From a virus (Duplodnaviria; Heunggongvirae; Uroviricota; Caudoviricetes), in the IMG/VR virus record IMGVR_UViG_3300035698_015309: a DNA stretch of 64,000 nucleotides; one strand, written 5' to 3'. The first letter of the stretch is position 1. Each line of letters starts with the position of its first letter. This document shows positions 1 to 63,790 of this stretch, piece by piece. Position numbers and translations under genes: made by a program. Under the pieces are notes generated by a model, which worked only from the letters and a program-made list of their open reading frames with translations, did no database searches and was not told the origin of the DNA.

Positions 1-256
1 AGGTTCTGGTGTGCCCAGATGTTCTGGGGGTGAACACATTGGTACTAACGATCACCCACGAGGCGTAAAACGAGTGCTGAGAGAGCGATTCCGTCTTCGA
101 CGGACCAGTTCCTTGGGATTCGGACGGAAGGAGCAACCGTCATCCGAGCCCTTACCGTTGGGCCGGAAGTTTACTACCGAGGTACTTGGGTCACCAAGAT
201 TCGGCACAGCTTCAAACTTGATGCCTGTTACATTCTAGCAGGTTTTAAGGAACGGT
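1..256 (+). mobile_element. Copy A of the tnpB 3'-end / omega-RNA scaffold + right-end (RE) module, truncated by the window edge. Ends ...AGGTTTTAAGGAACGGT at 256.
   Basis: Close nt similarity to tnpB 3' ends at 8940-9212 and 51530-51812 and to mini-elements at 18540-18802 and 35826-36100(-). ORF 11..238 is in the same frame as the TnpB C-terminus and stops at TAG inside the terminal hairpin CCTGTTACATTCTAGCAGG. Confidence 0.6.
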
Positions 257-343
257 AGGGTTTGTCCGTGAGGATTTCCACCCGATCTACCCCGTCAGCG
301 AAGTGCAACACCTGGATCCGGTCGATAGAAATGGTCTGACTCA

Positions 344-9212: not shown

Positions 9213-9281
9213 ACCAGTGTCCATCAGCGAACCGCCTGTTCACCACCTGGATCATTGCAGCCTGAGCCATCTCGTCCGTAG
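7773..9281 (+). CDS. tnpB: TnpB (RuvC-like RNA-guided nuclease). Stop codon lost (TAG->CAG in the RE hairpin) giving a ~23-aa read-through into the flank.
   Basis: RuvC-I LGVDVGLNV, RuvC-II VFVVEDLDL, YTSQECPSCG...CRSCG zinc finger, HAD RuvC-III. ~90% identical to the tnpB at 50373. Confidence 0.85.
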   Translation: MKCRIFRLHKDTNRSKIDKLEALHKAYVKYVRICVQTMLNQQTLNLPKAAKQTFFPRATDLTSQIEKIARDHAIQIVSAWAKATYARKLKPTITNLKHDGTLTDQDAKALCVIGLKSISKPWEFITQDHLDAYHTLLDTYGGNKPIVRDNLPMRLSEMTARLEDTTKAPLGGFWLRVSSLEARKSVWLPLVGNPYIQQADQVNKGISARKTKKGFWRFEAVSKAEWTIPEAQEDWPKLGVDVGLNVLAATSDGVTYGEHVKPKFDKLYARVRNLRANRQRQDLKDNSPKLDHLESKLSGLIKTETGRVVNTLIVRHPETVFVVEDLDLRGCRGQKRFAYRALQTNLERKAPTEKVNPAYTSQECPSCGYIHRGNRSSIRFHCRSCGRKAHADWVGSSGVLRRSEDEHIKAGDHPRGVKRVLRERFRVKRTSSLGFGRKEQPSFEPLPLGQRLTTVGSESFGSGTASNLMPVTFQQVLRNGTSVHQRTACSPPGSLQPEPSRP

Positions 9282-9371: not shown

Positions 9372-9534
9372 GTGTGTACCGACCAGCTTATTAAACTACC
9401 ACTCAGTCGGTGGAATTGAACCACACCTTGGCTTTATCAGAGCCACGCTCGAACACGAGCTACGACCTTGTAGTAGGACTGGCTACCTACATCTTCGGTT
9501 TATCAGACCGCTGTTCTAGCCGGTCGGTACACAC
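9372..9534 (-). other. structured element bounded by a perfect 13-bp inverted repeat (GTGTGTACCGACC / GGTCGGTACACAC), immediately downstream of a minus-orientation promoter motif (9535-9565)
   Basis: Internal hairpins GCTCG-TGTT-CGAGC and GGCT-CTGATAA-AGCC, a T-loop-like GTGG-TTCAATT-CCAC, and a duplicated CTGATAA. Confidence 0.3.
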
Positions 9535-9982: not shown

Positions 9983-10004
9983 CTGTGTGTATAGGGGGGG
10001 ACAG

Positions 10005-12365: not shown

Positions 12366-12459
12366 AAAAGTCTGCGGACAGGGGTTCCTTTTGCGACTTC
12401 ATTGAGTAGTAAGAAGTGCCGCCGAAGAAACTCGGCTGGATAAACAGACGGAGGGACAG

Positions 12460-13131
12460 ATGAAAAAAGGTATGCTGCACGGGTTGGAAGTGTGGGGGGA
12501 CAATGCCTGCTTCTCCCGCCCAGAGGTGACGGAGCGGACCACCTACCCCATCCCAACCCACTCAGCCTGTCGGGGGATCTTCGACGCTATCTACTGGAAA
12601 AGGTCCGCCAACTTCTACTGGCAGATCGTCGGGGTAGAGGTTGTGAACCCGATCCGGTACATGGGGATCATGCGGAACGAGATGAAAGACAAGGTCACCC
12701 GCCGCACTCTTCAGGTTGATCTTACAACCCAGAAGCACCGGACCCAAAAGCACACCAGGACTCTCCTGGACCCCCGGTACCGCATCTTCGCACGGGCGGT
12801 CTGCCGGAATCCTGATGGGAACACCAACGCCATCGACGCCCAATTCCGTCGTCGGGCGGAGAGGGGCCAATGTTTCCACCAGCCCTTCTTAGGTTGCAAG
12901 GAGTTTATGGCCAACTTCCAGCTTGTCCCGGTGGATGAGCATGATCCATCACAGGGACTCGCAGACCTTCAGGTGGACGTGGGGGTGATGGTCTACGACA
13001 CCTTCAATCTGCTGGTGCCCGATGGAGATCCTTCGGTCAGCGTGTTCCACGCACAGATCAAGGATGGGGCCGTGGCCTACCCGGAGTTCACTGATAGTGC
13101 CGCCGTGTTCCGGCCAGGGGGTGCAGCATGA
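12460..13131 (+). CDS. cas5: Cas5c (Cas5d) type I-C pre-crRNA endoribonuclease subunit
   Basis: 223 aa directly after cas3. GLEVWGDNACFSRPE...YWKR resembles Cas5d N-terminal blocks. ATGA overlap with cas8c. Confidence 0.8.
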   Translation: MKKGMLHGLEVWGDNACFSRPEVTERTTYPIPTHSACRGIFDAIYWKRSANFYWQIVGVEVVNPIRYMGIMRNEMKDKVTRRTLQVDLTTQKHRTQKHTRTLLDPRYRIFARAVCRNPDGNTNAIDAQFRRRAERGQCFHQPFLGCKEFMANFQLVPVDEHDPSQGLADLQVDVGVMVYDTFNLLVPDGDPSVSVFHAQIKDGAVAYPEFTDSAAVFRPGGAA

Positions 13132-14960
13132 GTGGTATCGGACAGAGCCTCCTCAACTATGCCGCACACTATATGCCCCAGCAGGCTCCGGTGGGGTACG
13201 AGTACCTGACCGTCGTGGAAACCGTAGTGTGCCTGACCCCGGACGGGAAGTACCAGGACTGTCACCTCAGGGACACCAAGACGGCCTCCCCGATCCTGAC
13301 ACCTCGGGTGCCCTCCAATTTGCTCAGGGCCACGCCCCCCAAGACTCACTTCTTCATCGGGTATGTCCCCCAGGTGTTCCCTCTCCTCGTGGCCGAACCG
13401 CACGACAACACCAAGAACGAGGTGAAGAGGGGCCTCTTCCTGGAGCAGATCAGAACGGTCATCAAGGAGGTTCCCTGCACTCGGAAGTACCTGACCCCCA
13501 TCCAGACCTTCCTGGAGGACGACGAGCAGGTCGCCCTTGTGGTTCAGGCTCTGACGAAGATGGAGGCAGACCTCAAGCGGGCTGTGATCTTCCAGACCGA
13601 GGGGAAGAAACTCGGCATCCCGTTCCAGGACAAGAAGGAATGGCGGGAGTGGTGGGCGACCTACCTTTCAGGAGCGGACAAAAAGAAGAAGACCAGCGAT
13701 AAGACGTTCCGCTGCGTCGTCACCGGGGACGAGATCACGAACCCCTGCCGCATCCATCCTGACGGCATTGCCTTCGGCACAACGAAGACGAAGCTGGTTG
13801 CCGCCAAGCAGACCTCCAGTCACCACTATGGCCAGGAGTCTGGCCTCGTTGCTCCGATGTCAGACCAGACGGCGAGCACAATGACCCAGGCTCTGGTTCA
13901 TGCCGCCCAAAACGCCGGGACGGCCTTTGGGGATCTTCGAATCCTTGTGTGGGCTTGTTCCAGGGGAGAAACCCTTACGGGGAAGGCTGGACTGCTGGCG
14001 GGCCAAGGGCCGGTTCTTGAAGGGGGCGAGTGGACCCAGATCCTGTCCGACGTTATGTCCGACCTCTTGAACTCGGGATTGACGGATGGGGAACTCCGGG
14101 GTGCCACCCGGAAGGTGAAGGAATACCTGGACACGGGCACCGGACCGGGAGGTGTCCTAGACATGGACTGCACCTTGGGCATCGTTTCTAGCAACGGTCC
14201 CCGGTTGGCTGTCCGGCACTGGGAGACTGGACCCCTGTCCGTCCTGTTCAAGAACATCTATCGATGGTATCAGGATATGACCATCAGCAACAACCGCAAT
14301 GACACGGGGATCGCCCGCCTTTCTGCACTCTGGCAGATCCTTTCCGCTGTCAACGGCCCAAGGGGCAAAGCTTCCGAACTGGAGCGTGAGATGCTCGTTC
14401 AGGTAGCCCTGCGGGGCCAGTCGGTCCCAATGAGCATTGTCAAAAAGGCCCTGGTGCAGTTCCGGTCACAGTTGCACCTGTCCATCAAACCGTCAACCAA
14501 CATGGGGATCGCTCCGGCATTGCCGGGAATCCTCAAAACCTTCATCAACAGGAGAGGGAACACCATGTGTGAAGCAGGATTGAACAAGGACCACCCGAGT
14601 GTGGCGTACCAGTGTGGGCGGTTGTTGTCCGTCCTGTCCGAACTCCAGAGCCTCGCCATCGGTGGGAGGAACCCCCCGATGGCCCTGGCTGCTCAGTTCT
14701 CGTCCGCAACGATGCAGAACCCGGCCCGTGCGCTGGCCCGGTTACTGCTCCGTTCCGAGAAGCACGTCAACAAGCTCGTCCGACAGGGAAAGGGATGGGC
14801 GGATCACAAACGGCAGGAGATCGTCGACCGCCTGCCCACAGACCTTCCGACCCGCCTCGGCATCGAGGATCAAGCTTTGTTTGCCATGGGGTTGCTCCAC
14901 CAGCGCTCGTCCTGGAAGAAGCAGGACAAGCCCGCAGGGACACCCCCGATTAAGGCATAG
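13128..14960 (+). CDS. cas8c: Cas8c (Csd1) large subunit
   Basis: 610 aa between cas5 and cas7 in canonical I-C order. Size typical. No closer motif recognised by eye. Confidence 0.75.
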   Translation: MSGIGQSLLNYAAHYMPQQAPVGYEYLTVVETVVCLTPDGKYQDCHLRDTKTASPILTPRVPSNLLRATPPKTHFFIGYVPQVFPLLVAEPHDNTKNEVKRGLFLEQIRTVIKEVPCTRKYLTPIQTFLEDDEQVALVVQALTKMEADLKRAVIFQTEGKKLGIPFQDKKEWREWWATYLSGADKKKKTSDKTFRCVVTGDEITNPCRIHPDGIAFGTTKTKLVAAKQTSSHHYGQESGLVAPMSDQTASTMTQALVHAAQNAGTAFGDLRILVWACSRGETLTGKAGLLAGQGPVLEGGEWTQILSDVMSDLLNSGLTDGELRGATRKVKEYLDTGTGPGGVLDMDCTLGIVSSNGPRLAVRHWETGPLSVLFKNIYRWYQDMTISNNRNDTGIARLSALWQILSAVNGPRGKASELEREMLVQVALRGQSVPMSIVKKALVQFRSQLHLSIKPSTNMGIAPALPGILKTFINRRGNTMCEAGLNKDHPSVAYQCGRLLSVLSELQSLAIGGRNPPMALAAQFSSATMQNPARALARLLLRSEKHVNKLVRQGKGWADHKRQEIVDRLPTDLPTRLGIEDQALFAMGLLHQRSSWKKQDKPAGTPPIKA

Positions 14961-15020
14961 TCTCTAATGGCCTAAGGTGGGCCTTAGAGTTGGATTAGGC
15001 ATAAAGTGAGGAGAAGTATC

Positions 15021-16031
15021 ATGAAGGATCTTTTGATGTGGCTGAAGAGTGGGACGGCGGCAATCGGATACAGGTTCGAGATCTTGTTCCTGTTCGATTG
15101 TCTGATGGGGAATCCCAACGGTGACCCCGACTTCGGCAACCTGCCCCGGACCATCCCGGACACGGGACACGGGTTCGTCACCGACGTCGCCATCAAGCGG
15201 CGTCTCCGCAACTACGTGAGTCTCCGCAAGGCAGGCAAGACCCCGTACCAGATTTTGCTGATGATGAACACCTGTACCAACAGGCTCATCGCCAAGGCCC
15301 ACGAGGACTCCCACGGGACCGTCCCGGCGAAGGCTACCAAGCAGGAGGAGCGGGCGGCGGGTGACCGGATGTGCCAGGACTATTGGGATGTCCGCACCTT
15401 CGGCGGTGTTCTCAACACAGGTGCCAAGGCGGGCCAGATTCGTGGACCCGTCCAGGTGGTGAGTGCCCGGTCCCTCGATCCGGTATCCATCCAGGAGATC
15501 ACCATCACCCGCATGACCGACACCAAGGGCTCCCCTGATCCCAAGAAGGTCAAGACCCCCAAGGATCAGGGTTTCTCCTCCGCCCAGTGGCAGGAGTATG
15601 AGGACGGGGCCGAGGCGGCGGCTCTCCGCACGATGGGAACCAAGGCGATCATCCCCTACGGTCTCTTCGCTGCCAACATCACGGTGAGCGCTTTCGTGGC
15701 GGAACAGACGGGCTTCTCGGCGGAGGATCTGGCCCTGATGATCGAGGGTCTGGAAAACATGTACGACCATGATCGGACCTCCAGCAAGGGTTTGATGACC
15801 TGTCGGGGCATCTACATCTTCAAGCACGTCGGGACGGCGGACGACCCCGAAGAGCGGGCACAGCAGGCCAAGCTCGGGTGCGCCCCGGCCCATAAGCTGC
15901 TGGACAACGGACGCATCGTGACTGTGGTCAAAAAGGACGGGGTAGAGGCCCCGATGTCCTTCGACGACTACACTGTCACCGTGGACGAGTCCAAGCTCCC
16001 GGAAGGTGTCGAGTTCCGGGCCATCCAGTAA
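15021..16031 (+). CDS. cas7: Cas7c (Csd2) backbone subunit
   Basis: MGNPNGDPDFGNLPR signature near the N-terminus. AGGAG RBS before ATG 15021. Last cas gene before the leader and array. Confidence 0.85.
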   Translation: MKDLLMWLKSGTAAIGYRFEILFLFDCLMGNPNGDPDFGNLPRTIPDTGHGFVTDVAIKRRLRNYVSLRKAGKTPYQILLMMNTCTNRLIAKAHEDSHGTVPAKATKQEERAAGDRMCQDYWDVRTFGGVLNTGAKAGQIRGPVQVVSARSLDPVSIQEITITRMTDTKGSPDPKKVKTPKDQGFSSAQWQEYEDGAEAAALRTMGTKAIIPYGLFAANITVSAFVAEQTGFSAEDLALMIEGLENMYDHDRTSSKGLMTCRGIYIFKHVGTADDPEERAQQAKLGCAPAHKLLDNGRIVTVVKKDGVEAPMSFDDYTVTVDESKLPEGVEFRAIQ

Positions 16032-16227: not shown

Positions 16228-17418
16228 GTCGCATCCTCTAACAAAGGATGCGTGGATTGAAACAGAGAGTACGTGCAGGCGTCCAGCGGGCTCAAGCCAA
16301 CGGAAAGTCGCATCCTCTAACAAAGGATGCGTGGATTGAAACGTTACTGCCCGCATGACACCCCGGATGAGATCACCAGTCGCATCCTCTAACAAAGGAT
16401 GCGTGGATTGAAACACTGTGGACCTGGCGGGGAAGAAGCCGACCTATGGTGGTGTCGCATCCTCTAACAAAGGATGCGTGGATTGAAACTTTCAAACAGC
16501 GACCCAGTCGAGTGCGACTTGGTGGGTGTCGCATCCTCTAACAAAGGATGCGTGGATTGAAACAAGTGCCTCGCCGTCAAGGATCCAGAGGGGAAGCTGA
16601 AGTCGCATCCTCTAACAAAGGATGCGTGGATTGAAACAGGCCCACAGAACGGCTCCCACGGCCTGGGGACGCCGTGTCGCATCCTCTAACAAAGGATGCG
16701 TGGATTGAAACGCTCAGAGGACTGCTCGACGGGACAAGACGGTCTTCCTCGTCGCATCCTCTAACAAAGGATGCGTGGATTGAAACTCGAAGTTGGGCGA
16801 AATCCAGGAATGACGGTCACAAGTCGCATCCTCTAACAAAGGATGCGTGGATTGAAACAATCCGATGACACTTCCCTTTCCTGTCCGCCCTTGGAGCGTC
16901 GCATCCTCTAACAAAGGGTGCGTGGATTGAAACGAGATCCCCCTTGCGACTCCCGCCCTGAAGGCGCTGGCGAAGTCGCATCCTCTAACAAAGGGTGCGT
17001 GGATTGAAACGTAAGCGAACTCCACCCCTGGTCCGTGGGTGACCGGTCGCATCCTCTAACAAAGGGTGCGTGGATTGAAACGCAGTGAGCCAGCGCCCCA
17101 CGAGCCATGCCTGCCTTACTGTCGCATCCTCTGAAAAAAGGATGCGTGGATTGAAACTAAATCCGATTTACGGGGAACTGGCTGGTCGGCTCACGTCGCA
17201 TCCTCTAACAAGGGGTGCGTGGATTGAAACGCTGATTCGGACTGATCCCTGAGAAGGCGCAACCCTGCCGTCGTACCATCTAACAAGGGGATGCGTGGAT
17301 TGAAACGAAACCGCAGCGAGGCAGAAGGGGTCACTCCCTCACGGGTGTGTGGATTGAAACATTAGGGTAGTAAGTGTAGACAACCTCGTCGTTCCCATGA
17401 GGGGGCGTGGATTGAAAC
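16228..17418 (+). CRISPR. Type I-C CRISPR array: 15 well-conserved 36-37-nt repeats (GTCGCATCCTCTAACAAAGGATGCGTGGATTGAAAC) plus 2 degenerate terminal repeats. Spacers 35-43 nt. Leader at 16035-16227.
   Basis: Repeat starts 16228, 16307, 16379, 16454, 16528, 16602, 16676, 16751, 16823, 16898, 16975, 17046, 17121, 17195, 17270; degenerate ends at 17360 and 17418. Distal repeats carry GGATGC->GGGTGC/GGGGTGC variants. Repeat ends in the I-C-typical GTGGATTGAAAC. Confidence 0.95.
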
Positions 17419-17501: not shown

Positions 17502-18401
17502 ATGATGACGCTTTGGATGAAACTGGCGGTCTTAGCCGTCCTGGGGACAACGACCCCGGAGCAGACCACCCACCCTGCATATACCCCGTACTCTTACGAC
17601 CAGACCCTCACTGCAGTGGCGGAGACCATCACAGCGGAAGAGGCTGAGTTGATCCTCACCGTTGACGTGGAGGAGGAGATCAACTACTGGATGATCAAGG
17701 AGCACTTCGGGTTCGATGACACCGTAATAGAGGACATCCTACATGTGGCCTTGCACACGGCAGAGGAGCCGATGCTCATCGCCCACATTGTTTCCACGGA
17801 AAGCGGTGGGGACCGTGACGTCATCAACTACTGTAAGGTGTGGGGTGAGCCCTTCTACAACGAGAGCAAAGAACGCTGGGAGAAGAAGTGCGTCAAGCTC
17901 GGCTCCTGCTACACGAACTGCCGGAAAAAGCGGCATGTTTGGAGGAACCACCTCGACGTCGGTCTGTATCAGCTTCGGGACGTGGTCGAGCGGGTCGGTG
18001 GCCCTGAGGACTCCAAGCGGTTCTGCGGGTGGTCCTGGTTGCGAGACTTTGAACGGGACACGGGTCGGGATGTGTCCTCTGAGTGCGCCCTGGAGCGTTT
18101 CTGTGCCCGTGACGCAATGATCCACGCCGTACACACCCTCCGGGAGGAACAGCTTGCAGCGGCCCACAGGGGCGTTGGTAAGGCCAACTGCCGGGGTCTC
18201 CCTGACGAATGGAAGTGGATGGGCCTGTGGAACGGTTGCAAGAGCGCCAGGAACCATGCAGACCACACTGCTCCCCTGGTTGAGATGCGGGACTTCCACG
18301 TCCGTCTGACGATGTTGCGGTACCGTATTGATGAGATTGCCGAGAAATGGCCGCTCTTGGGCTACCTCATTGTGCCCCTGAAAGGACAAAAGGTAGTTTG
18401 A
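17502..18401 (+). CDS. secreted protein with lytic-transglycosylase (SLT)-like motifs
   Basis: Signal-like N-terminus MMTLWMKLAVLAVLG. IVSTESGG...DVGLYQL resembles the SLT ES...GLMQ. GAGTAGAC plus AGGAGG upstream. Confidence 0.45.
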   Translation: MMTLWMKLAVLAVLGTTTPEQTTHPAYTPYSYDQTLTAVAETITAEEAELILTVDVEEEINYWMIKEHFGFDDTVIEDILHVALHTAEEPMLIAHIVSTESGGDRDVINYCKVWGEPFYNESKERWEKKCVKLGSCYTNCRKKRHVWRNHLDVGLYQLRDVVERVGGPEDSKRFCGWSWLRDFERDTGRDVSSECALERFCARDAMIHAVHTLREEQLAAAHRGVGKANCRGLPDEWKWMGLWNGCKSARNHADHTAPLVEMRDFHVRLTMLRYRIDEIAEKWPLLGYLIVPLKGQKVV

Positions 18402-18430: not shown

Positions 18431-18816
18431 GTCGTATCCTTTGACAAAGGGTACTTGACAGTGCCCTTCATACCTGCTAAAGTCTAACTGTTCCTGCTTG
18501 AAACAGGGAGCTGTTGCGGCAGGAAAGCTCATGCTGATTGGGTAGGAGGTTCTGGTGTGCCCAGATGTTCTGGGGACGAACGCATCAAAACTAACGATCA
18601 TCCGAGAGGCATAAAACGAGTGCTAAGAGAGCGATTCCGTGTTAAACGGACCAGTTCCTTGGGATTCGGACGGAAGGAGCAACCGTCATTCGAGCCCTTA
18701 CCGTTGGGCCGGAAGTTTACTACCGAGGTACTTGGGACACCAAGATTCGGCACAGCTTCAAACTTGATGCCTGTTACATTTTAGCAGGTTTTAAGGAACG
18801 GTATGTGGATTGAAAC
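18431..18816 (+). repeat. Solitary CRISPR repeat split by a mini-element: 5' hairpin part GTCGTATCCTTTGACAAAGGGTAC (18431-18454) and 3' handle TGTGGATTGAAAC (18804-18816)
   Basis: The two halves reconstruct a repeat variant with the same hairpin. Insertion is at the stem-loop/handle junction. Confidence 0.65.
18449..18802 (+). mobile_element. Miniature omega-RNA-only element, copy B: LE palindrome GGGTACTTGACAGTGCCC (TTGACA-17-TAAAGT) fused by internal deletion to the tnpB 3' end/RE
   Basis: LE matches 7697 and 36179(-). Junction CTTGAAACAGGG|AGCTGTTGCGGCAGG identical to copy C. RE identical to the tnpB copies. ORF 18557..18784 is the in-frame remnant. Confidence 0.7.
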
Positions 18817-18934
18817 ACGATGTTGATGTTCCACCTTGATGACCTGACTCAGGAGTGGCCGCTCAGGGGGCTGGATCAACGCTCCTAAAAGTCGGGGCCT
18901 TGTGGTTGTGCGTTTTTGACGGTTAGGAGAACGG

Positions 18935-19730: not shown

Positions 19731-20315
19731 TCATTTGTTTTCTTCCGCCAGGAGCAACTCCTGGACCCGCTGGATTTCCTCGGTGGTGTGTATGGTGCCA
19801 CCGCTGTTCAGCCGCAGGTAGAACCGCAGCCGCTCTTTACGGGAAAGGTCCACAAACGAAACATGGACATTGGGTAACCGACGCACATCCCGCAGTGACA
19901 GGTCACGGAACCAGAACGCCTTCCCGTCGTCCATCTCCGCTGGGATCACCCCTTCTAGCCAACGGAGCGTCGCCCGGATCCTCTGTTGTCCGTCGATCAC
20001 CTCAGCCGCTGCGTCCAGCCAGGACACCCCCTCTGGAAGATTCTCGTCCGTCTCGTACCTCTGGATGTATATCGGCGGAACCGGACCACCTGTGATCAGG
20101 TGCCCTATGAAGCGGGACGCCTGCGAGTCCGTCCAGACCAGCCCCCTCTGATAGTCTGGGTTCAGGTCCCAAGGGACCTTGTTTTTCCGCCCAATCGCCC
20201 GAACCTCCTCCAGCAGGAAGTCTAGGGGAAAGTCTAACTGACCAGTTGGCAAGGGCCAGTCCTGGTAGCTACGCAGGGTCGAGTCCACTTCCGGCCTGTT
20301 TTTGACATTGCTTCC
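19731..20315 (-). CDS. DUF262 (ParB-like nuclease, GmrSD N-terminal-type) domain protein
   Basis: VIDGQQR motif. Start MGSNVKN. Full minus-orientation motif plus leader hairpin at 20350-20393. Confidence 0.55.
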   Translation of the reverse strand, partial: GSNVKNRPEVDSTLRSYQDWPLPTGQLDFPLDFLLEEVRAIGRKNKVPWDLNPDYQRGLVWTDSQASRFIGHLITGGPVPPIYIQRYETDENLPEGVSWLDAAAEVIDGQQRIRATLRWLEGVIPAEMDDGKAFWFRDLSLRDVRRLPNVHVSFVDLSRKERLRFYLRLNSGGTIHTTEEIQRVQELLLAEENK

Positions 20316-20542
20316 CATCGTTTCATTCTCCTCAGGGGTCATTTGCCCCTCACTTACTCTACTCAGCGGGGTCAGCAGATGATCCCATTGCACGTAAGGA
20401 TCTAAGGAAGGTGTGTCCGAAACGGCCCTTGAGCAAAGACCCCCAGAACTTTTGTTGATCATCTCAGATTCCGTTGGAGTAGTGTGGGTAGCCTGAGGAA
20501 GGCTCACTAACATCGGGGTGGACCCCCGAGAAGGAGAATGGG

Positions 20543-22456
20543 ATGGGGTTTCTTATCTGGATCCTGATGCTTACGGGCATCGGAGCGGTCGGTCTCGGCG
20601 TCTGGCTCATCGCAAGACGCAAAATCTGGATGCTGAAGACGTGGCGAAAGGTCACCCGCAAGGTCACGGACAAGGTCCAGATGATGGACCAACGGGTGAC
20701 ACAGACAGACTTCGACGCTCAGGTGCAGGTCGAGATGGACGCTGCGGAGGCGAACGTACCGAAGGGCTTGGGCTTGTTGAGCATCCCGCTCTTCCTGTAC
20801 GCCCTGTTGGCCATTTTCTTCAGTTCCATGATGGTGGACGTGCCGCAATCCGGGTTCATGGAACTGGAGCGGAACTTCGGTGGGGCTTCGATGCCCGCAG
20901 GCCAGATCATCGCTACACAAGGCGAGAACGGCCCCCAGGCAGCGCTGCTGTCCCCCGGTCTCAAGTGGGTCATGCCCTTCATGTACTCCACGAATGAACG
21001 GGAGCCTGTGGTTATCCCGGACGGGATGATCGGCGTGATCACCACCAAGGCGGGCAAGTCCATGCCGGAGGGAATGATCTACGGCCCCAAGTTCACGGAC
21101 TTCGACGGTTTCCTCGACGCCCAGGTCTTCCTGGATCATGAGGACGGGTACAAGGGCCAACAGGTGACAGTGGCCCTGCCGGGAACGTGGAAGTTCCACT
21201 CAGGGGTGTACTCGATGACAGAGGCACCTATGACCAACGTGGAGATGGGCCATGTGATGGTCGTGAAGGCCAACTACGGCGATGTGCCCGAGGAGCGGGC
21301 AACCATCGAGATCACGGATCTCGTGGAGAAGGAGATTGCCCTGTCCAAGGATGAACTGGAAGCGGCATATCTGGAGGCGGAAGACGCCGAGCAGCGACGG
21401 CTGCTGGCTGCGGGGGTGGCGGAGAAGGACATCAGGATCGACCGCAAGAGCTTGAAGGTGCGAAAGACCAAGATCGTGCTGGTGGAGGTCAAACGGAAGA
21501 TCCCCGACCCGCTGGTCGATGTGGGTGAGGCGGGCATCTGGCGTGATGCGCTGGTCCCCAACAAGTATCCAATGCATCCGTTCGCCCACGAGATGACGGA
21601 TATCAATACGATGCGCCTGCGAATCTCCTACACTCCGCCTGGTGAGGAAGGGGAAGACGACGGGCGGGTCATCGTCCGTAGCAAGGATGGGTACGAGTTC
21701 CCGATGGACATACGCATTGTGTACCATGTGGAACCAATGAACGCCCCTTGGGTCCGTGCAATGGTAGGTGACGACGAGAAGATCGGGGATGTCGTGATGA
21801 CCCCTACGGTCCTCTCAATCTCCCGTGTGCTGGCAGGTCGGTCCAACGTGCTGGACTTCTTCGCAGACCTGGAGGTCCGGCAGAAGGACGCTAAGGATCT
21901 CATCGCCAAGAAGTGCGCCGTGTACGGTGTGACGGTCGATGAGGTACTCATCGGGCGTGTGGGCGACGAGGCTTCCCTGGGTGAACTGATGAAAACCCAG
22001 CGGGACCGTGAGATCGCCGTGCAGCAGCAGGTCACCTTCGCCGTACAGCAGAAGGCAGCGGAACAGCAGAAGCGGCTGAACAAGACGATGCAGGAGGCGG
22101 AGGAGGAGAAGAAGCTCGCCGCCGCTGCGTATCAGGCCCAGGTCGCCGTACAAAACAAGAAGAAGACCATCACCGACGCTGAGGCCGCTGCCGAGAAGGT
22201 GACGATTGCAGCCACGGCTGAAGCCGAGCGGATCTTCAAGATCAAGAAGGCGGAAGCGGACGGCTACACCCTGAAGGTTGCCGCCCTTGGTCCCCAGGGG
22301 GTGGCAATGCTGGAAGCCTTCCTGATCATCTCCGAGGGCAAGATCAAGATCACCCCGAACGTCGCAGTCAGCGGCGGAGGTGCCAACGGGGGCAACAACG
22401 CCTTCGAGGCACTGATGGCCATGATGCTCCAAGAGAAGGCCGGACCCGCCAATTAG
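20543..22456 (+). CDS. SPFH/band-7 flotillin-like membrane protein (637 aa)
   Basis: N-terminal TM segment. Long Ala/Glu/Gln/Lys coiled-coil tail typical of flotillins. GATCATC-N13-GAGTAG at 20457-20482. Confidence 0.7.
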   Translation: MGFLIWILMLTGIGAVGLGVWLIARRKIWMLKTWRKVTRKVTDKVQMMDQRVTQTDFDAQVQVEMDAAEANVPKGLGLLSIPLFLYALLAIFFSSMMVDVPQSGFMELERNFGGASMPAGQIIATQGENGPQAALLSPGLKWVMPFMYSTNEREPVVIPDGMIGVITTKAGKSMPEGMIYGPKFTDFDGFLDAQVFLDHEDGYKGQQVTVALPGTWKFHSGVYSMTEAPMTNVEMGHVMVVKANYGDVPEERATIEITDLVEKEIALSKDELEAAYLEAEDAEQRRLLAAGVAEKDIRIDRKSLKVRKTKIVLVEVKRKIPDPLVDVGEAGIWRDALVPNKYPMHPFAHEMTDINTMRLRISYTPPGEEGEDDGRVIVRSKDGYEFPMDIRIVYHVEPMNAPWVRAMVGDDEKIGDVVMTPTVLSISRVLAGRSNVLDFFADLEVRQKDAKDLIAKKCAVYGVTVDEVLIGRVGDEASLGELMKTQRDREIAVQQQVTFAVQQKAAEQQKRLNKTMQEAEEEKKLAAAAYQAQVAVQNKKKTITDAEAAAEKVTIAATAEAERIFKIKKAEADGYTLKVAALGPQGVAMLEAFLIISEGKIKITPNVAVSGGGANGGNNAFEALMAMMLQEKAGPAN

Positions 22457-35825: not shown

Positions 35826-36179
35826 ACCGTTCCTTAAAACCTGCTAAAATGTAACAGGCATCAAGTTTGAAGCTGTGCCGAATCTTGGTGACCCAAGTAC
35901 CTCGGTAGTAAACCTCCGGCCCAACGGTAAGGGCTCGATTGACGACCGCTCTAATCGCCCGAATCCTAAGGAACTGGTCCGTCGAAGACGGAATCGCTCT
36001 CTCAGCACTCGTTTTACGCCTCGTGGATGATCGCCAGCTTTGGTGTGTTCATTCCCAGAACATCTGGGCACACCAGAACCTCCTACCCAATCAGCATAAG
36101 CCTTCCTGCCACAACAGCTCCCTGTTTCAAGCAGGAATAGTTAGACTTTAGTAAGTTTGAGGGGTACTGTCAAGTACCC
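35826..36179 (-). mobile_element. Miniature omega-RNA-only element, copy C (minus strand): LE palindrome GGGTACTTGACAGTACCC at 36162-36179, RE at 35826
   Basis: Reverse complement is near-identical to copy B including the deletion junction. ORF 35844..36071(-) is the remnant frame. Confidence 0.7.
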
Positions 36180-36196
36180 TCCACCATGGGGATTGT

Positions 36197-36897: not shown

Positions 36898-36998
36898 TCC
36901 TGAAGCGTAAATCCAGGGGCACCTCCCATCTGGAAAAGTTCGAAGCCTAGACAACCCCACCATCGCCGGTATCATACGAATAACAGAGGAGGCATTGA

Positions 36999-37326: not shown

Positions 37327-37932
37327 ATGTCCGTCAAATTCACCAAGAAAGGCATTGCCATCGAAAAGGGTACCACTCCCCCCTCGTGGGAGGACACCGA
37401 CCAGCAGTATCAGGAGTACGTGGGCCACCAGCTTCTCAAAGCTCGACTGGAGCACCTGAAAATCTTGGAGGAAATCGCAGGGGTGCTGCCCGTGTTCGAG
37501 GAACGGCACCTCCTCAATATGGAGGCGCATCAGGCAGCGATGATTTACCTGAACCTCCCGGATCCAGGCCCCCTTTTCCCGAGCTACCAACGAAACTTTA
37601 TCACCATGAACACCACGGTAATGGACCCTGCAATTTCCTGTGCCGGGGTGATGCCCCATGTCAGGGTACTTCTTGGGTGGCTCGCTTTTCCTGAGACAAT
37701 CCGAGAAGGCGTCTGCTACCACCTCTTGACGGCGGGACGTGCTCTTTACCCTTTTGGATACGACTCAGGCCGTTCGGGTTTCACCCTCCTCCAGGAGCGT
37801 GTGGGACACTGCGTCGCTGCCGGTCTCGCTGCCTGTGAAAAACTCGGTTTTGATGGTACAAGGACGCCCCGGAAATCGGTGGTTGAACAACTCGTCCAGA
37901 CTGCGGCCCTTCTCACGGAGGACACCGAATGA
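37327..37932 (+). CDS. hypothetical protein
   Basis: GAGTAGAC plus AGGAGG upstream. Confidence 0.4.
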   Translation: MSVKFTKKGIAIEKGTTPPSWEDTDQQYQEYVGHQLLKARLEHLKILEEIAGVLPVFEERHLLNMEAHQAAMIYLNLPDPGPLFPSYQRNFITMNTTVMDPAISCAGVMPHVRVLLGWLAFPETIREGVCYHLLTAGRALYPFGYDSGRSGFTLLQERVGHCVAAGLAACEKLGFDGTRTPRKSVVEQLVQTAALLTEDTE

Positions 37933-38696
37933 GCACCGCAATCATCGTACTCGGTCATGGTGGTGGGATCCCCGTCCCTGGGATGGGCAACACGAACTTC
38001 GCCATCGTCCCGAATGCCCCCAGAGGGATCCCCGGACCAGAGTTGCTCCAAAGCCATCCCTTCTGGTTGGTCGACTGCGGACCAGAGACCCTCGCCACCC
38101 TGGTCGGGTTGCGTGCCCTGAAGAACCTGAAGGGGATCTTCATCACGCACGTACACTACGATCACACTGGGGGCCTACTCGGGCTGGCCTACACCTTCAA
38201 ATACATGTTGAAGCGCAAGATCCCTCTCGTGATCCCCAGCAAGCTCCAAGTGCTGCTGGAACAAACGATGGTGGAGTTGACACGGACATCAGGTGGCCCA
38301 GCTAACGTGTGGTTGGACTACTGGCAGGGCTGCTTCCTGGGGAATGGTGCTGACCTGGAGGTGGAGGGTTTCACGGCGGAGTTCTTCCCCGAGGATCACA
38401 ACATCGAAGATTTCCCTGTCTATGGGGTCAAGATCCGGGTGCCCTCCTTGCGTAAGGTTTACTTCACAGGCGACACCGTTAACCCCTCGGACAAGGACGC
38501 AGACATCATCTTCCAGGACTGTCAGGTCTACGGGGACGATTCCAAGTACGACGTCCACTGTTCCTACCAAAAAATCCTCCAGGCGTTCCCCGAAGGATGC
38601 CGGGAACACGTCATCCTCTGTCACTGCCCCCCGCAACCGCAGTTCGAGGAGGACGGTTTCAAGCACGCCACGCAGTGGAGAGTGTTTTACGTCTGA
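37929..38696 (+). CDS. metallo-beta-lactamase-fold hydrolase (RNase Z-like)
   Basis: FITHVHYDHTGG (HxHxDH). Stop is 8 nt before the solitary CRISPR repeat. Confidence 0.6.
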   Translation: MSTAIIVLGHGGGIPVPGMGNTNFAIVPNAPRGIPGPELLQSHPFWLVDCGPETLATLVGLRALKNLKGIFITHVHYDHTGGLLGLAYTFKYMLKRKIPLVIPSKLQVLLEQTMVELTRTSGGPANVWLDYWQGCFLGNGADLEVEGFTAEFFPEDHNIEDFPVYGVKIRVPSLRKVYFTGDTVNPSDKDADIIFQDCQVYGDDSKYDVHCSYQKILQAFPEGCREHVILCHCPPQPQFEEDGFKHATQWRVFYV

Positions 38697-38704
38697 GTGC
38701 CTAA

Positions 38705-38740
38705 GTCGCATCTTTTGGCAAAAGGTGCGTGGATTGAAAC
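38705..38740 (+). repeat. Solitary CRISPR repeat GTCGCATCTTTTGGCAAAAGGTGCGTGGATTGAAAC
   Basis: Identical 5' GTCGCATC and 3' GCGTGGATTGAAAC. Stem-loop sequence differs from the array repeat but stays self-complementary. No second repeat within 200 nt. Confidence 0.8.
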
Positions 38741-38743
38741 GGC

Positions 38744-39336
38744 GTGACCCCTGACAGATAGATGATCGCCTGACCGCTCACGGGGTCATAGGAACCCTTA
38801 ACGGTCAGGGACGCCTCCGCCGGGCGGGACACCACGGGGATCTTGGGCCAGTCCCGGATGAGGATCCCAACCAGCCGCTCGGACTCCTGGACGATTCTGT
38901 GGGGCGGGATGAGCAGCGTGAGGGTGTCCCCATCGAAAGCAACGGGATGGAACCCCCGCTTCCACAACCACTCTAACAGGACGATCAACTCGGGGTGCTC
39001 CTCGGCCAGGATCTGGATGCCCTTCACCAAGGGGCGGAAGGCGTTGTCCGGTAAACCGAACGCCGAGTCAGGGATCGAGACCTCGGTGAGGCCCTCTGTC
39101 CAAGCACCCCACTGGGGATTCACGGGAACGGTACGGGGAGCGCCACGCTTGCCCCACAGCGCCCCCAGAGCCTCCTGTTCCTGTGCCTGCTCCTCTTCGG
39201 TCAACTGGACCCACAGGAGGCGCTCACGGGACACGAAGCCCTGGTCCTCATCCGGGGTCCAGGGCAGTCCTTCGGGAAGTGCCCTGCCTACGAGGATCAT
39301 GAGGGCCAGGTCACGGTGCTGTTCTAAAAGTGTCAT
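38744..39336 (-). CDS. hypothetical protein. The listed ORF runs on to 38701 because the CRISPR repeat is open in this frame.
   Basis: 198-aa ORF (211 aa as listed). The last ~12 aa (...PFQSTHLLPKDAT) are encoded by the repeat. Confidence 0.35.
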
Positions 39337-39485: not shown

Positions 39486-39671
39486 ATGGAGCCCATCCTT
39501 CTGACTATCAACGAGGTTGCCCGTTTGTTCGGGATGCACCCAAATTCGATCCGTAAACTCATGGGCGATGGCAGACTACCCTTTCTTAAGATCGATAAGT
39601 CGCTGCGGTTCGAAACTGATGCCGTGATGCTATTTATTGAGAAACTCAGGAAACAGAGAGCGAAGGATTGA
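39486..39671 (+). CDS. MerR/excisionase-type HTH protein (IS607 TnpA N-terminal-domain-like)
   Basis: INEVARLFGMHPNSIRKLMGDGRLPFLKIDKSLRF. GGGAGAA RBS. Confidence 0.55.
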   Translation: MEPILLTINEVARLFGMHPNSIRKLMGDGRLPFLKIDKSLRFETDAVMLFIEKLRKQRAKD

Positions 39672-41067
39672 CGTCTTGAAAGTCACTCGCATTCTTCAGG
39701 CAGATGTTCCGCCTGCTTTGTTGCAGGTGTGTCGAGCTACCAGATTTCTTCGTGCAGATGTCTGGCGTCGGTACGGTGCCCTGAAGAACGTGGGTAAAAG
39801 TGCCTTGGCTATCCGTAAAGAAATTGTAGCAGGTGGCATCTACGTCACTCTCGCCATAGACGGGACCATACGTAACGAAACAACCAAAGATGTCGTGAAC
39901 GACATCCTGTTCTACAAAGCAGCAGCGAAAGGAAAGGTTCGCAAAGCCATTTGGCAGCGCACCGACAATGAAATGGAACGCAAACGACTCTACACGCTTC
40001 TGCGATCAGACGCATGGATGGAGGATCCCTTCCTTCACCGCCAAATGCGTAAACACTTCAAGCACGGCGTCTCACACACGAAAAATCAGTTTATCGTGAG
40101 GTCCGACAAATTCAAAATAGAGCACGTTAATGGGTATCTGACGATCGTCATCCAAATTGCCCGTAAATACGGTGACGACATAGTTCTAACGACAACGTCA
40201 AACGGCACGAGTGTGGATCTGAGTAGCTGTAACCTACGCATCATTGTGAAGGGTGGTACAACTGAGATCCACTACAGCGTGGATAAAAGCAGTGGGCGTC
40301 CGCATGGTAGCCGGACGCTGGGCGTTGATAAAGGCTACACCGAAGCATTTGTTGATTCGGATGGTGAGCATCAGGGTGAGCAGTTCGGTGCTGTGATGAC
40401 TGAGTACAGCGACAAGGTCAGCAAGACGGGTTCCGCTAGAAACAAGTTGTACGCCCTAGAAAAAAAGCATCGTCAAAGCGGAAACTCCAGAAAAGCTGAC
40501 AACATCAGGGCACACAACCTTGGGTGTAAAAAGATTGATGCTCGTAAACGATTGGCTCAAACACGACTACGGGGTGTAGCCTTTAAGGCTGCTCATGCCA
40601 TCGTGGATAAGGCAGCGGTGGTCGTGTCAGAAGACTTAACCTCTCCGATCGCAAAAAAGCGACCTTGGAAAAGGTTTAATAGAAGAATGAGTGGCTGGGC
40701 AAAGGGAGCACTTGCTGAGGCCCTCGATTCAGTTTGTACGCAGCGTGAAGCCAGCCATGAGTTGGTAAACTGTGCTTACACATCGCAAATGGACTCTGTA
40801 ACGGGTTTGCTGCAAGGCAAGCGTGTTGGAGACAAATTTTACCGTATTAACGGGGATGTTATTCAGGCCGATCACAATGCTGCGCTGAACGTGTTAGCCC
40901 GGTTGTCTGACAAGGACATCGGGTGTTTCACCCCTTATCAAGAGGTAAAACGCATCTTGTTGGCACGTTCTCCGGCGGAACTGACCGTCAAAAGGCACGA
41001 GTTGCAGTCGAGAGGCTCTCAACCGTGTGCGGATAAACCCTCACGATCAGGAGTGATCAATGCTTGA
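39637..41067 (+). CDS. TnpB-like RuvC nuclease lacking the zinc finger (start uncertain)
   Basis: RuvC-I LGVDKGYTE, RuvC-II VVVSEDLTS, YTSQ then no CxxC, RuvC-III IQADHNAALNV. Confidence 0.6.
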   Translation: MRNSGNRERRIDVLKVTRILQADVPPALLQVCRATRFLRADVWRRYGALKNVGKSALAIRKEIVAGGIYVTLAIDGTIRNETTKDVVNDILFYKAAAKGKVRKAIWQRTDNEMERKRLYTLLRSDAWMEDPFLHRQMRKHFKHGVSHTKNQFIVRSDKFKIEHVNGYLTIVIQIARKYGDDIVLTTTSNGTSVDLSSCNLRIIVKGGTTEIHYSVDKSSGRPHGSRTLGVDKGYTEAFVDSDGEHQGEQFGAVMTEYSDKVSKTGSARNKLYALEKKHRQSGNSRKADNIRAHNLGCKKIDARKRLAQTRLRGVAFKAAHAIVDKAAVVVSEDLTSPIAKKRPWKRFNRRMSGWAKGALAEALDSVCTQREASHELVNCAYTSQMDSVTGLLQGKRVGDKFYRINGDVIQADHNAALNVLARLSDKDIGCFTPYQEVKRILLARSPAELTVKRHELQSRGSQPCADKPSRSGVINA

Positions 41068-49745: not shown

Positions 49746-50376
49746 TCGTCTCCTAGCTCTCACCAAAGCAGCCGAAGCTCTTGGTGTTCACCGGAATACG
49801 CTTCGGGACTGGGCTGATGAAGACAAGATCCCTCACGTTCGCACCGTGGGTGGGCATCGCCGTTTCAAGCAATCAGACATTGACAGGTTGCTGGGCAATC
49901 TCCCAATCGATAAACAGCAAACGGAACGAGTTGTTATCTACTGCCGTGTGTCCAGCCACGATCAGAAAAAGTCAGGCGATCTTGAACGTCAGGCTGGACG
50001 GGTCACGATACACAGCATCACGAAGCAGTACAAGTTGGTCGAAGTGCTTCAAGACGTTGGGTCGGGCATGTCAGACACACGCCCAAAACTCCGAAAGTTG
50101 TTCAAACTGGTCAATGCCCATGAAATAGATAGGGTGGTTGTTGAACACAAAGACCGCCTGACTCGCTTCGGGTTCAATCTGGTCAATGCTTACTTCAACA
50201 GTCATGGTGTCACCATCGAGTGGACACAAGAAGTCCTTGGCAAAGGCTATCAGGAAGAGTTGGTCGAAGACATTTTGACGCTCATGTCGTCGTTCTCCGC
50301 TAAGATTTATGGCAAACGTTCGGCAGAACGACGTAAGGCCAAGAAAGCAGCAGAAGCGGCAGAGACAGTCAAATGA
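49720..50376 (+). CDS. tnpA: IS607 TnpA: MerR-like HTH fused to a serine-recombinase catalytic domain (start ATG 49720-49735)
   Basis: LTKAAEALGVHRNTLRDWADEDKIPHVRTVGGHRRF then VVIYCRVSSHDQ (catalytic Ser) ...RQ. Confidence 0.8.
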   Translation: MREMRMLTDRLLALTKAAEALGVHRNTLRDWADEDKIPHVRTVGGHRRFKQSDIDRLLGNLPIDKQQTERVVIYCRVSSHDQKKSGDLERQAGRVTIHSITKQYKLVEVLQDVGSGMSDTRPKLRKLFKLVNAHEIDRVVVEHKDRLTRFGFNLVNAYFNSHGVTIEWTQEVLGKGYQEELVEDILTLMSSFSAKIYGKRSAERRKAKKAAEAAETVK

Positions 50377-51797
50377 AATGTCGCATCTTCCGACTTCATA
50401 AAGATACCAATCAGTCCAAAATCGACAAGTTGGAAGTCCTACACAATGCCTACGTCAAGTACGTCCGTATCTGCGTACAAACGATGCTTGACCAGCGGGT
50501 CTATAATCTCCCGAAAGCCGCCAAACAAACGTTCTTCCCACGGGCCACCAACCTTACGTCTCAGATCGAAAAGAACGCACGAGACCATGCAATACAAATC
50601 GTGAGCGCTTGGGCGAAAGCTACTTATGCTCGTAAGTTGAAGCCAACCATTACCAACCTTAAGCATGACGGTACCCTTACCGATCAGGATGCCAAAGCAC
50701 TCTATGTCATCGGATTGAAGTCCATCAGTAAACCGTGGAAAGTTATTACTCAAGACCATCTCGACGCCTACCACACCCTGTTGGACACCTACGGAGGTAA
50801 TAAGCCTATCGTAAGAAACAACCTACCCATGAGGTTGTCGGAGATGACGGCTCGATTGGAAGATACATCGAAGGCCCCTCTCGGGGATTTCTGGCTGAGA
50901 GTATCCTCGTTAGAAGCTCGTAAGTCCGTCTGGTTACCCCTCGTTGGGAATCCTTACATCCAACAGGCTGATCAGGTCAGTAAAGGCATTTCGGTCCGCA
51001 AGACCAAGCGAGGCTTCTGGCGCTTTGAAGCTGTCAGCAAGGCCGAGTGGGCCGTTCCTGAAGCACAGGAGGGTTGGCCTAAGTTGGGCGTTGACGTTGG
51101 TCTGAACGTCCTTGCAGCTACCTCAGATGGAGTGACCTATGGTGAGCACGTCAAGCCCAAATTCGATAAGCTCTATGCTCGTGTCAGAAATCTCCGAGCA
51201 AATCGCCAACGACAGGATTTGAAAGACAACAGTCCAAGGTTAGATCACCTTGAGAGCAAGTTGAGTGGGTTGATCAAGACAGAAACGGGTCGTGTGGTGA
51301 ATACCCTCATCGCCCGTCATCCCGAGACGGTGTTCGTAGTCGAAGATCTTGATCTTCGAGGTTGCCGGGGTCAAAAGCGGTTCGCTTACAGGGCGTTACA
51401 GATCAACTTGGAAAGGAAGGCTCCAACAAAGAAAGTGAACCCTGCTTACACGTCGCAGGAGTGTCCTTCTTGTGGTTATGTTCATCGAGGAAACCGAAGT
51501 TCAATAAGGTTCCGTTGCCGCTGTTGTGGCAGGAAGGCTCACGCTGATTGGGTAGGAAGTGCTGGTGTGCTCAGACGTTCTGGGAACGAACACATTGGAA
51601 CTGGTGATCACCCACGAGGCGTAAAACGAGTGCTGAGAGAGCGATTCCGTCTTCGACGGACCAGTTCCTTGGGATTCGGGCGAAAAGAGCAACCGTCATT
51701 CGAGCCCTTACCGTTGGGCCGGAGGCTTACTACCGTTGGATCAGATTCGTCTGGCAGCGGCACAGCTTCAAACTTGATGCCTAGTAGATTCAAGTAG
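50373..51797 (+). CDS. tnpB: TnpB (RuvC + zinc finger), intact stop
   Basis: ~90% identical to 7773..9281. CPSCGYVHRGN...CRCCGRKAHADW. Confidence 0.85.
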   Translation: MKCRIFRLHKDTNQSKIDKLEVLHNAYVKYVRICVQTMLDQRVYNLPKAAKQTFFPRATNLTSQIEKNARDHAIQIVSAWAKATYARKLKPTITNLKHDGTLTDQDAKALYVIGLKSISKPWKVITQDHLDAYHTLLDTYGGNKPIVRNNLPMRLSEMTARLEDTSKAPLGDFWLRVSSLEARKSVWLPLVGNPYIQQADQVSKGISVRKTKRGFWRFEAVSKAEWAVPEAQEGWPKLGVDVGLNVLAATSDGVTYGEHVKPKFDKLYARVRNLRANRQRQDLKDNSPRLDHLESKLSGLIKTETGRVVNTLIARHPETVFVVEDLDLRGCRGQKRFAYRALQINLERKAPTKKVNPAYTSQECPSCGYVHRGNRSSIRFRCRCCGRKAHADWVGSAGVLRRSGNEHIGTGDHPRGVKRVLRERFRLRRTSSLGFGRKEQPSFEPLPLGRRLTTVGSDSSGSGTASNLMPSRFK

Positions 51798-52008
51798 GTT
51801 TTGAGGAACGGTTTACGCCACCCTCTCCATCTGTGTAAGAGACTTGGTGCAAACCCTGGACCCGAATGCTTTCATCCTGCATCACGACATCAAACACCCG
51901 CTGATCAGGGCTCTCCTGGCCAGCGGACTTTTCGAGGACACGGGTAAGGTCGCAAGCTACGGGTTCGTCTTTGATCGGCCCGTGTGGAAACTACTTAAGG
52001 AGGACTGA

Positions 52009-63454: not shown

Positions 63455-63520
63455 CAATTGCTCCTAAGAAAACATTTGACAAGGAGGGACAATTCGTGTG
63501 TTCTTTAGGTGCTTATCGCT

Positions 63521-63557
63521 GTCGCATCTTCTGAAAAGAATATGCGTGGATTGAAAC
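63521..63557 (+). repeat. Solitary CRISPR repeat GTCGCATCTTCTGAAAAGAATATGCGTGGATTGAAAC (37 nt, GAAA tetraloop variant)
   Basis: Conserved termini. Divergent but still self-complementary stem. Intergenic between two minus-strand genes. Confidence 0.8.
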
Positions 63558-63560
63558 GGC

Positions 63561-63790
63561 CTAGAGGACATAGGGTTCTCCCGCCGGGGGTAGGATCTCG
63601 TACAGGTAGTGAACGTCCGGTTTGCCGTCCGTTTTGGAAGCGCAGGATGCCAGGACTCGGAACTCCAAGGGGGTAGGCTTCCGCATGAGCACCACCCGCC
63701 AGGCAAACAGCGCTTCGGCCTCTTCTGTTTCATACACGATCTTCCACAGATCTTTACCAAGCTCCATCGCTGCTAGTGGTGTCTTCATCG
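63561..63790 (-). CDS. hypothetical small protein
   Basis: Start MKTPLAAMELGKD after a GGAGGGG RBS and a minus-orientation GGAGTAGAC. Confidence 0.4.

Follow-up and report, generated by a model that had tools for sequence, protein, structure and literature searches.

The stretch of DNA analysed here (64,000 nucleotides in length, hereafter the window) belongs to a contig of ~528 kb (528,260 bp) that is probably a huge-phage genome. Most of its ORFs have no Pfam or PHROG family, and neither capsid nor terminase genes were seen in the 64-kb window. Its left part contains a type I-C effector operon, cas3-cas5c-cas8c-cas7, placed directly upstream of a CRISPR array, and no cas1, cas2 or cas4 was seen by Pfam in the window. 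The phage Cas5c matches solved I-C pre-crRNA endonucleases (E=8e-31). For Cas8c, a shared-word search of limited sensitivity through a collection of 5.8 billion proteins returned only the protein itself at E<=1e-20. Spacers of the array are 35-43 nt long, plus a final one of 27 nt ahead of the last truncated repeat, and their comparison with the window and all fetched loci gave only chance-level matches of 12-13 nt. The coordinates of these and of the other features discussed below are collected in Table 1.

Table 1. Positions of the CRISPR-Cas locus, the solitary repeats and the genes next to SRU1 (window coordinates unless stated)
Feature	Positions	Strand	Basis or remark
Type I-C effector operon cas3-cas5c-cas8c-cas7	9987-16031	+	Pfam
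cas3	9987-12365	+	Pfam
cas5c	12460-13131	+	Pfam
cas8c	13128-14960	+	Pfam
cas7	15006-16031	+	Pfam
CRISPR array	16228-17418	+	15 good repeats and two truncated degenerate repeats
Truncated degenerate array repeats	17343-17360 and 17388-17418		Array end
SRU3, split solitary repeat	18431-18816	+	Halves 18431-18452 (5') and 18804-18816 (3')
Promoter-like site upstream of the 65-aa, 201-aa and MBL genes	36948-36975	+	Consensus match only
201-aa gene	37327-37932	+	Gene calls; stop overlaps MBL gene start
MBL-fold hydrolase gene, Apyc1-like candidate	37929-38696	+	Pfam Lactamase_B_2, weak Apyc1 match
Conserved 211-aa gene, convergent with MBL gene	38701-39336	-	14 homologues
SRU1, solitary type I-C CRISPR repeat	38705-38740	+	36 nt; nhmmer E=2e-11
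SRU1 hairpin, stem CGCAUCUUUU/AAAAGGUGCG, GGC loop	38707-38729	+	Fold
11-nt segment UGGAUUGAAAC, predicted crRNA 5' handle	38730-38740	+	Identical to array repeats
SRU2, intact solitary repeat	63521-63557	+	37 nt; profile and pattern searches
SRU0, fourth solitary I-C repeat, GTCGTGTCCTTTAGAAATGGATGCGTGGATTGAAAT	L028 12745-12779	Locus minus strand	~1.4 kb left of window position 1

A solitary repeat and its neighbouring genes

The pattern GTCG-N18-26-GATTGAAAC occurs 18 times in the window, against 0.02 occurrences expected by chance. Sixteen of these matches fall in the array or in its degenerate end, and the remaining two are isolated, at 38705 (SRU1) and 63521 (SRU2). SRU1 (GTCGCATCTTTTGGCAAAAGGTGCGTGGATTGAAAC) was also recovered by a profile built from the repeats (nhmmer), and the MBL-fold ORF stops 8 nt ahead of it. 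As expected of a type I-C repeat, it has GTCGC on its 5' side, then a stem-loop, and on its 3' side 11 nt that end in ATTGAAAC; Rfam gave on it only a sub-threshold match to CRISPR-DR9. These observations bear out the first-pass annotation, which had described a single repeat copy next to an MBL-fold gene, with invariant ends and with the nearest array 21 kb away: sequence, pattern and profile search agree on the copy, its ends GTCGCATC and GCGTGGATTGAAAC match those of the array repeat exactly, and the array lies at a distance of 21.3 kb.

A second repeat near SRU1 was found neither by a repeat finder nor by the profile or pattern searches. Additional copies at spacer distance, which had been named as the observation that would speak against a solitary repeat, were looked for with nhmmer --max (filters off) up to E=100. 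The sole nearby match was SRU1's own palindromic antisense and no further copy, full or partial, was present within ~20 kb, so that we regard SRU1 as solitary. We also considered a CRISPR mini-array at this site, but two or more repeats flanking a spacer were not present in the profile search.

On the + strand, the MBL gene closes a unit that leads into SRU1, and the 201-aa gene upstream of it is presumed to belong to the same transcription unit. The MBL protein looks like a counter-defence enzyme, an Apyc1-like candidate: its HxHxDH motif is intact, its closest solved homologues are the Apyc1 entries 7t28 and 7u2s (anti-Pycsar), and its score against the Pfam Apyc1 family is 30 bits, below the cut-off of 50. 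We found no terminator-like site on the + strand between this gene and SRU1, and no promoter or terminator of their own was predicted for SRU1 and SRU2. The suggestion that SRU1 is positioned to be co-transcribed with the upstream operon is therefore plausible, given the promoter-like site ahead of the 65-aa gene and the lack of a terminator-like site before the repeat.

On the opposite strand, SRU1 is covered by the end of the 211-aa gene, whose last 12 codons (FQSTHLLPKDAT) are the reverse complement of the repeat and whose stop codon (38701-38703) lies just past it. This is a real, conserved gene with 14 homologues at 39-73% identity. In the homologues the conserved core stops near residue 199 and the tails are variable; in the phage protein, residues 201-211 are predicted to be disordered. 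The structure model of this protein (pLDDT 83) has no match in the PDB, and the genes of 201, 211, 65, 117, 75, 168 and 299 aa had no match in Pfam or PHROGs. The position of SRU1 is consequently neither intergenic nor free of cas genes, as a called ORF covers it and the phage carries a cas operon and an array 21 kb away.

Hairpin, handle and substitutions

Folding of SRU1 and of the array repeat, as recommended by the first-pass annotation, gave a stem of 10 bp with a 3-nt loop for the former (-10.4 kcal/mol), against 8 bp and a 7-nt loop for the latter (-11.7 kcal/mol). The SRU1 hairpin is closed by the pair C3-G25, which leaves exactly 11 nt on its 3' side. This handle segment is invariant across all the copies, save for the last base of SRU0. 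Because I-C solitary-repeat RNAs are cleaved 3' of the hairpin and retain the 11-nt handle (bioRxiv 10.1101/2024.12.27.630466), Cas5c would be expected to cut SRU1 between 38729 and 38730. The larger fold around SRU1 was no better than that of shuffled sequence (z=+0.57).

SRU1 differs from the array consensus by six substitutions, all of them located in positions 9-21. One pair shows a true double change (C9-G19 to U-A), another was changed to a wobble (U7-A21 to U.G) that is also present in array variants, the substitution C11U closes the C11.A17 mismatch of the array repeat, and the remaining two are loop changes. The earlier claim that base pairing was kept by compensatory substitutions holds for one pair and is narrower than first proposed, the other stem changes being of the wobble or mismatch-closing kind. 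In a simulation, six random substitutions fell all within positions 9-21 with P ~0.001, and kept the hairpin as well with P ~5e-5. When eight repeat variants were compared (a small sample of related sequences), 92.5% of the stem cells were paired, three pairs had changed on both sides, and the observed covariation score was reached in 2 of 500 shuffles.

A similar picture emerged from the four solitary copies taken together. According to a count from the aligned copies, they carry ~23 substitutions, only one of which falls in the 15 positions made up by the 5' GTCG and the 11-nt handle. These substitutions avoid the handle and keep or lengthen the stem, and the 11:17 mismatch of the array repeat is closed in every solitary copy, by C11U in three of them and by A18G in SRU2. 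Moreover, single stem changes are mostly G.U wobbles, which pair in the + strand RNA only and are mismatched in the antisense RNA. The pattern of substitutions, wobbles and conservation favours selection for recognition of a + strand RNA by Cas5c and Cas7, and its non-random nature speaks against neutral decay of SRU1. The view that SRU1 is not the remnant of a decayed array is in this respect well founded, the more so as a strain of 93% identity keeps it (see below).

Dispersed copies, relatives and the possibility of a relic

At least four solitary repeats (SRU0-SRU3) are dispersed over ~83 kb, all on the strand of the array, and ~10 kb of extra sequence on each side contained no more copies beyond SRU0. 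SRU0 is flanked by two stop codons, that of a co-directional gene of 60 aa, which it follows at 5 nt, and that of a convergent DUF3228 gene at a distance of 1 nt; its stem contains two wobble pairs and a mismatch, and its last base is altered. SRU2 is found in a gap between two minus-strand genes, both with strong ribosome-binding sites and both antisense to it, and the 75-aa gene has its stop codon 3 nt away. A TTGACA occurs 39 nt upstream of SRU2, with no acceptable -10 element. In the fold of the + RNA, a 14-bp stem with four G.U pairs brackets SRU2 at 63497-63573, but its stability is marginal (z=-1.75). SRU3 stands 29 nt past a + strand gene, with the 299-aa gene between it and the array, and is split by a TnpB-derived mini-element of ~355 bp (insert 18448-18803). 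The 36 nt that follow its 3' half (18817-18852) are identical in 24 of 36 positions to 18309-18344 in the upstream 299-aa gene, which is far above chance.

The mini-element was found at two other places of the window, 35826-36180 (-) and 1-257 (+), the copy within SRU3 being on the + strand, and full copies of a TnpB insertion sequence are present at ~7698-9213 and ~50300-51812. The left end of the mini-element carries a TTGACA-17-TAAAGT promoter; its right end corresponds to the 3' region of the tnpB gene and looks like an omega-RNA. As one mini-element sits inside SRU3, the guide part of such an omega-RNA would there begin with the CRISPR handle TGTGGATTGAAAC. More TnpB genes occur at 39486-41067 and beyond the right end of the window, some of them with a serine-recombinase partner (IS607-like).

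Other genes of the region include a tRNA-Ile (GAT) gene at 9400-9471 (-), with cas3 on one side and a TnpB element on the other. The CRISPR locus is closely followed by the gene of a protein whose N-terminal domain is of the GmrSD type (19731-20513, -) and, adjoining it, that of a 637-aa SPFH/Band-7 protein (20543-22456, +), and these two are possible defence or conflict genes. A 513-aa protein encoded at 5070-6617 (-) combines WGR, PARP regulatory and PARP catalytic domains (precomputed Pfam), an unusual cargo for a phage.

The closest relatives (73% protein identity) have no repeat here, and their convergent genes share 8 nt; aligned to them, the window has ~36 extra nucleotides. SRU1 is therefore an insertion in this lineage: it arrived as ~36 nt between the convergent genes and replaced the variable tail of the 211-aa protein. 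A second strain, 93% identical in DNA over 2.2 kb (151 differences), keeps SRU1 unchanged within an identical run of 124 nt, the divergence between the two strains being mosaic. Genes for the MBL protein and its neighbour occur on the 528,260-bp JGI contig and also on ENA contigs of 521 kb. With the 211-aa and MBL proteins as queries, scans at the protein level revealed no relatives in the viral contig collection or in the phage database, and megablast of 15 kb against the phage database gave nothing. Scans for the repeat in reference genomes, metagenomes and viral contigs returned SRU1, SRU2, unrelated solitary copies and one variant repeat that sits in an unrelated I-C array, and no array of the phage's own repeat was found among GTDB representative genomes and JGI metagenome contigs.

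A further question is whether the solitary copies are relics devoid of function: single repeats scattered by illegitimate or microhomology recombination with DNA of the array and persisting where they do no harm, such as gene ends and gaps. The absence of the ~36 nt from related genomes, the overlap of SRU1 with a dispensable and disordered protein tail, the disruption of SRU3 by a mobile element and the partial degradation of SRU0 are all in line with this explanation. Additionally, the 124-nt identical run could reflect mosaic recombination, as other identical runs of 197-473 nt exist. Nevertheless, we consider relics unlikely, for the substitutions are strongly non-random, avoid the handle and preserve pairing, every solitary copy has lost the stem mismatch of the array, by one or the other of two routes, and the G.U wobbles are specific to the + strand RNA. 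Some ascertainment bias is to be expected in this comparison because the copies were found through their conserved ends, but the profile search could still detect half-repeats.

A role at the level of DNA was considered as well. The minimal substrate for spacer integration is a single repeat, and the solitary copies could serve as landing pads where host Cas1-Cas2 start new arrays, or as recombination sites for the exchange of spacers with host arrays. The lack of adaptation genes from the window would fit, as published for the Ace Lake phage (PMC7416419). However, the sequence upstream of SRU1 is not similar to the array leader, no spacer has been added to any of the four in the strains seen, and the wobble pattern indicates selection on RNA rather than on DNA. 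We regard this role as very improbable.

Possible roles: decoy, processing site or guide RNA

The published roles of solitary repeats are those of Racr decoys, of host crRNA-like regulators and of viral mimics of such regulators. Racrs are RNAs that bind Cas proteins into aberrant complexes unable to target and thereby inhibit interference; they are frequently neighbours of anti-defence genes, with which they can be co-transcribed. Among the readings of SRU1 we tentatively prefer, with a probability of roughly 0.4, that it is a Racr-like decoy or a titrator of Cas proteins co-transcribed with the Apyc1-like operon, because the layout of RacrIC1 fits best. SRU1 would be transcribed as the 3' tail of the operon. 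The Cas5c of the phage, or that of a host with a compatible I-C system, would then bind the hairpin and cut at its 3' base. The downstream fragment would carry the 11-nt handle with neither a second repeat nor a designed guide, and for this reason could load Cas5c and Cas7 into non-targeting complexes. Of this account, the anatomy, the insertion, the conservation pattern and the context were observed in the sequences, and transcription, cleavage and the effect on Cascade are inferred.

Several features are in favour of the decoy: a cognate Cas5c is encoded in the same genome, the hairpin and handle are kept, and the neighbouring gene looks like one for counter-defence. On the other hand, relatives at 73% protein identity manage without SRU1, their two genes overlapping, and SRU1 has neither a terminator nor a promoter to itself, whereas the solitary repeat of a 70-kb viral contig (L020/L027) is closely preceded by a -10-like TAAGAT, and a terminator stands past its spacer-like segment. 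The disruption of SRU3, together with the stem mismatch and changed last base of SRU0, implies that individual copies are dispensable. The main difficulty is that, as the phage encodes matching Cas proteins, a pure decoy would drain its own Cascade too.

This last point leads to uses directed at the phage itself. The RNA of SRU1 may act on the phage's own system, either as a processing site or as a brake on Cascade. In the first case Cas5c would punctuate transcripts, trimming those that read through at repeats placed after genes; the upstream mRNA would be left with a 3' end protected by a hairpin, and the antisense tail running into the convergent gene would be removed. The positions of the copies are suggestive in this regard. 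Three of the four lie 5-29 nt past a co-directional stop (5 nt for SRU0, 8 nt for SRU1 and 29 nt for SRU3), SRU0 and SRU1 are exactly at convergent junctions, and a convergent gene stops 3 nt away from SRU2. No intrinsic terminator was predicted at these junctions, the stems are longer than that of the array repeat in all solitary copies, and the cognate Cas5c is provided by the same genome.

Some of our data do not agree well with such mRNA processing, which we regard as rather improbable. SRU2 is antisense within a minus-strand operon and no + strand gene precedes it, related genomes do without SRU1, and four copies are too few for their frequency at convergent junctions to be significant (estimated P ~0.09). 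Gene-dense genomes tolerate insertions mainly at junctions, and therefore position alone is no proof of function. To our knowledge, there is no natural precedent for Cas5c as an mRNA-processing enzyme. The wider proposal that the phage seeded the ends of its genes and its convergent junctions with cognate repeats, for RNA processing and operon punctuation or for a self-directed brake through its own Cas5c and Cascade, appears doubtful to a similar degree. If it were true, the expression of the counter-defence operon would be tied to the CRISPR machinery of the phage instead of providing a decoy against the host.

A further role put forward by the first-pass annotation was that of a regulatory crRNA-like RNA with the downstream sequence as a pseudo-spacer. 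In such an RNA, comparable to CreR, CreA or Cracr, the repeat and the ~35 nt that follow would guide Cascade to a promoter of the phage or the host that they match in part, and repress it without cleavage. Single-repeat I-C RNAs of this kind exist. Solitary I-C repeats whose ends are those of the phage repeat occur in Megasphaera sp. MJR8396C (L015 515-600) and in a Sporosarcina MAG (L014 3400-3500), followed in both by ~30-35 nt of spacer-like sequence and an intrinsic terminator, and the same-ended repeat of the 70-kb viral contig shows this layout as well. The Megasphaera repeat stands ~300 nt upstream of a gene whose product is, judged by eye, Cas3-like, and by this position it resembles a CreR-type regulator.

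SRU1 departs from this layout. The 35 nt downstream of it are the antisense of conserved coding sequence that is also present in the relatives free of the repeat, this segment, from 3 nt past the repeat onwards, is predicted to fold on itself, and no terminator, 3' hairpin or second repeat follows. As a threshold for a regulator we took at least nine PAM-proximal matches to a PAM-adjacent promoter, and nothing in the 64-kb window reached it; in fact, no TTC-flanked seed of even 7 nt that matches the sequence downstream of SRU1 is present there. The search for matches to the sequence after the repeat, which had been advised, was extended to the pseudo-spacers of the other solitary copies and to the fetched loci, and yielded only chance-level matches of 12-13 nt, none with a TTC-flanked seed. 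The guide role was not upheld by these results and seems very improbable for SRU1.

Comparison with known solitary repeats

Viral solitary repeats as catalogued by Faure et al. (2019; SRUFinder) are, like SRU1, single repeats of recognizable subtype with no partner, and they sit on mobile elements, as SRU1 probably does. They were described as unassociated with cas genes and as often lying directly downstream of a promoter, whereas the genome of SRU1 has a cas operon 21 kb away and SRU1 has no promoter of its own. As SRUFinder masks confident ORFs, it may overlook a repeat that an ORF tail covers, and SRU1 does not appear in the consulted portion of their list. More generally, pipelines that mask coding regions can miss repeats under the tails of ORFs.

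CreR, CRISIS-type SRUs and viral Cracrs (bioRxiv 10.1101/2024.12.27.630466, 10.1101/2024.10.29.618823) share with SRU1 the single repeat-like unit and the 11-nt handle, and are processed by Cas5c. All of these carry in addition a dedicated spacer-like segment with a match to a PAM-adjacent promoter, and then a 3' hairpin or terminator, neither of which accompanies SRU1.

Huge-phage CRISPR-Cas systems without adaptation genes were reportedly described by Al-Shayeb et al. (2020). The genome of SRU1 resembles in this the complete circular ~528-kb huge phage of Ace Lake (PMC7416419), which has I-C effectors and an array and lacks cas1, cas2 and cas4. The consulted passages on it describe arrays and make no mention of dispersed solitary repeats.

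The closest parallel is RacrIC1, from a prophage of Bifidobacterium pseudocatenulatum (Camara-Wilpert et al. 2023, PMC10651486), which is bicistronic with acrIC5, begins 11 nt past it and is active against type I-C. Both RacrIC1 and SRU1 are solitary I-C repeats of phage genomes in which hairpin and handle are kept, and SRU1 resembles its cognate repeat in sequence and in secondary structure, as expected of Racr mimicry. Both follow at a short distance the stop of a gene of counter-defence type, a candidate one in the case of SRU1, and the layout of SRU1 permits the co-transcription found for RacrIC1. The neighbour of RacrIC1 is an Acr gene, whereas that of SRU1 is by similarity an Apyc1-like hydrolase. 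SRU1 also differs in overlapping the end of a convergent ORF and in belonging to a phage that encodes cognate Cas5c, Cas7, Cas8c and Cas3 along with an array.

Viral contigs commonly carry I-C solitary repeats, as far as the excerpted SRU list goes, and one of them has been validated; SRU1 therefore adds to a known class and does not define a new one. What is unusual compared with that class is the presence of a cognate cas operon in the same huge-phage genome, with dispersed copies of longer stem around it, one of which overlaps an ORF tail. Should the target of these copies be the Cas5c or Cascade of the phage itself, a CRISPR-carrying virus would be seen to regulate or repurpose its system by mimicry of its repeat, and nature would provide an example of Cas5c in mRNA processing.
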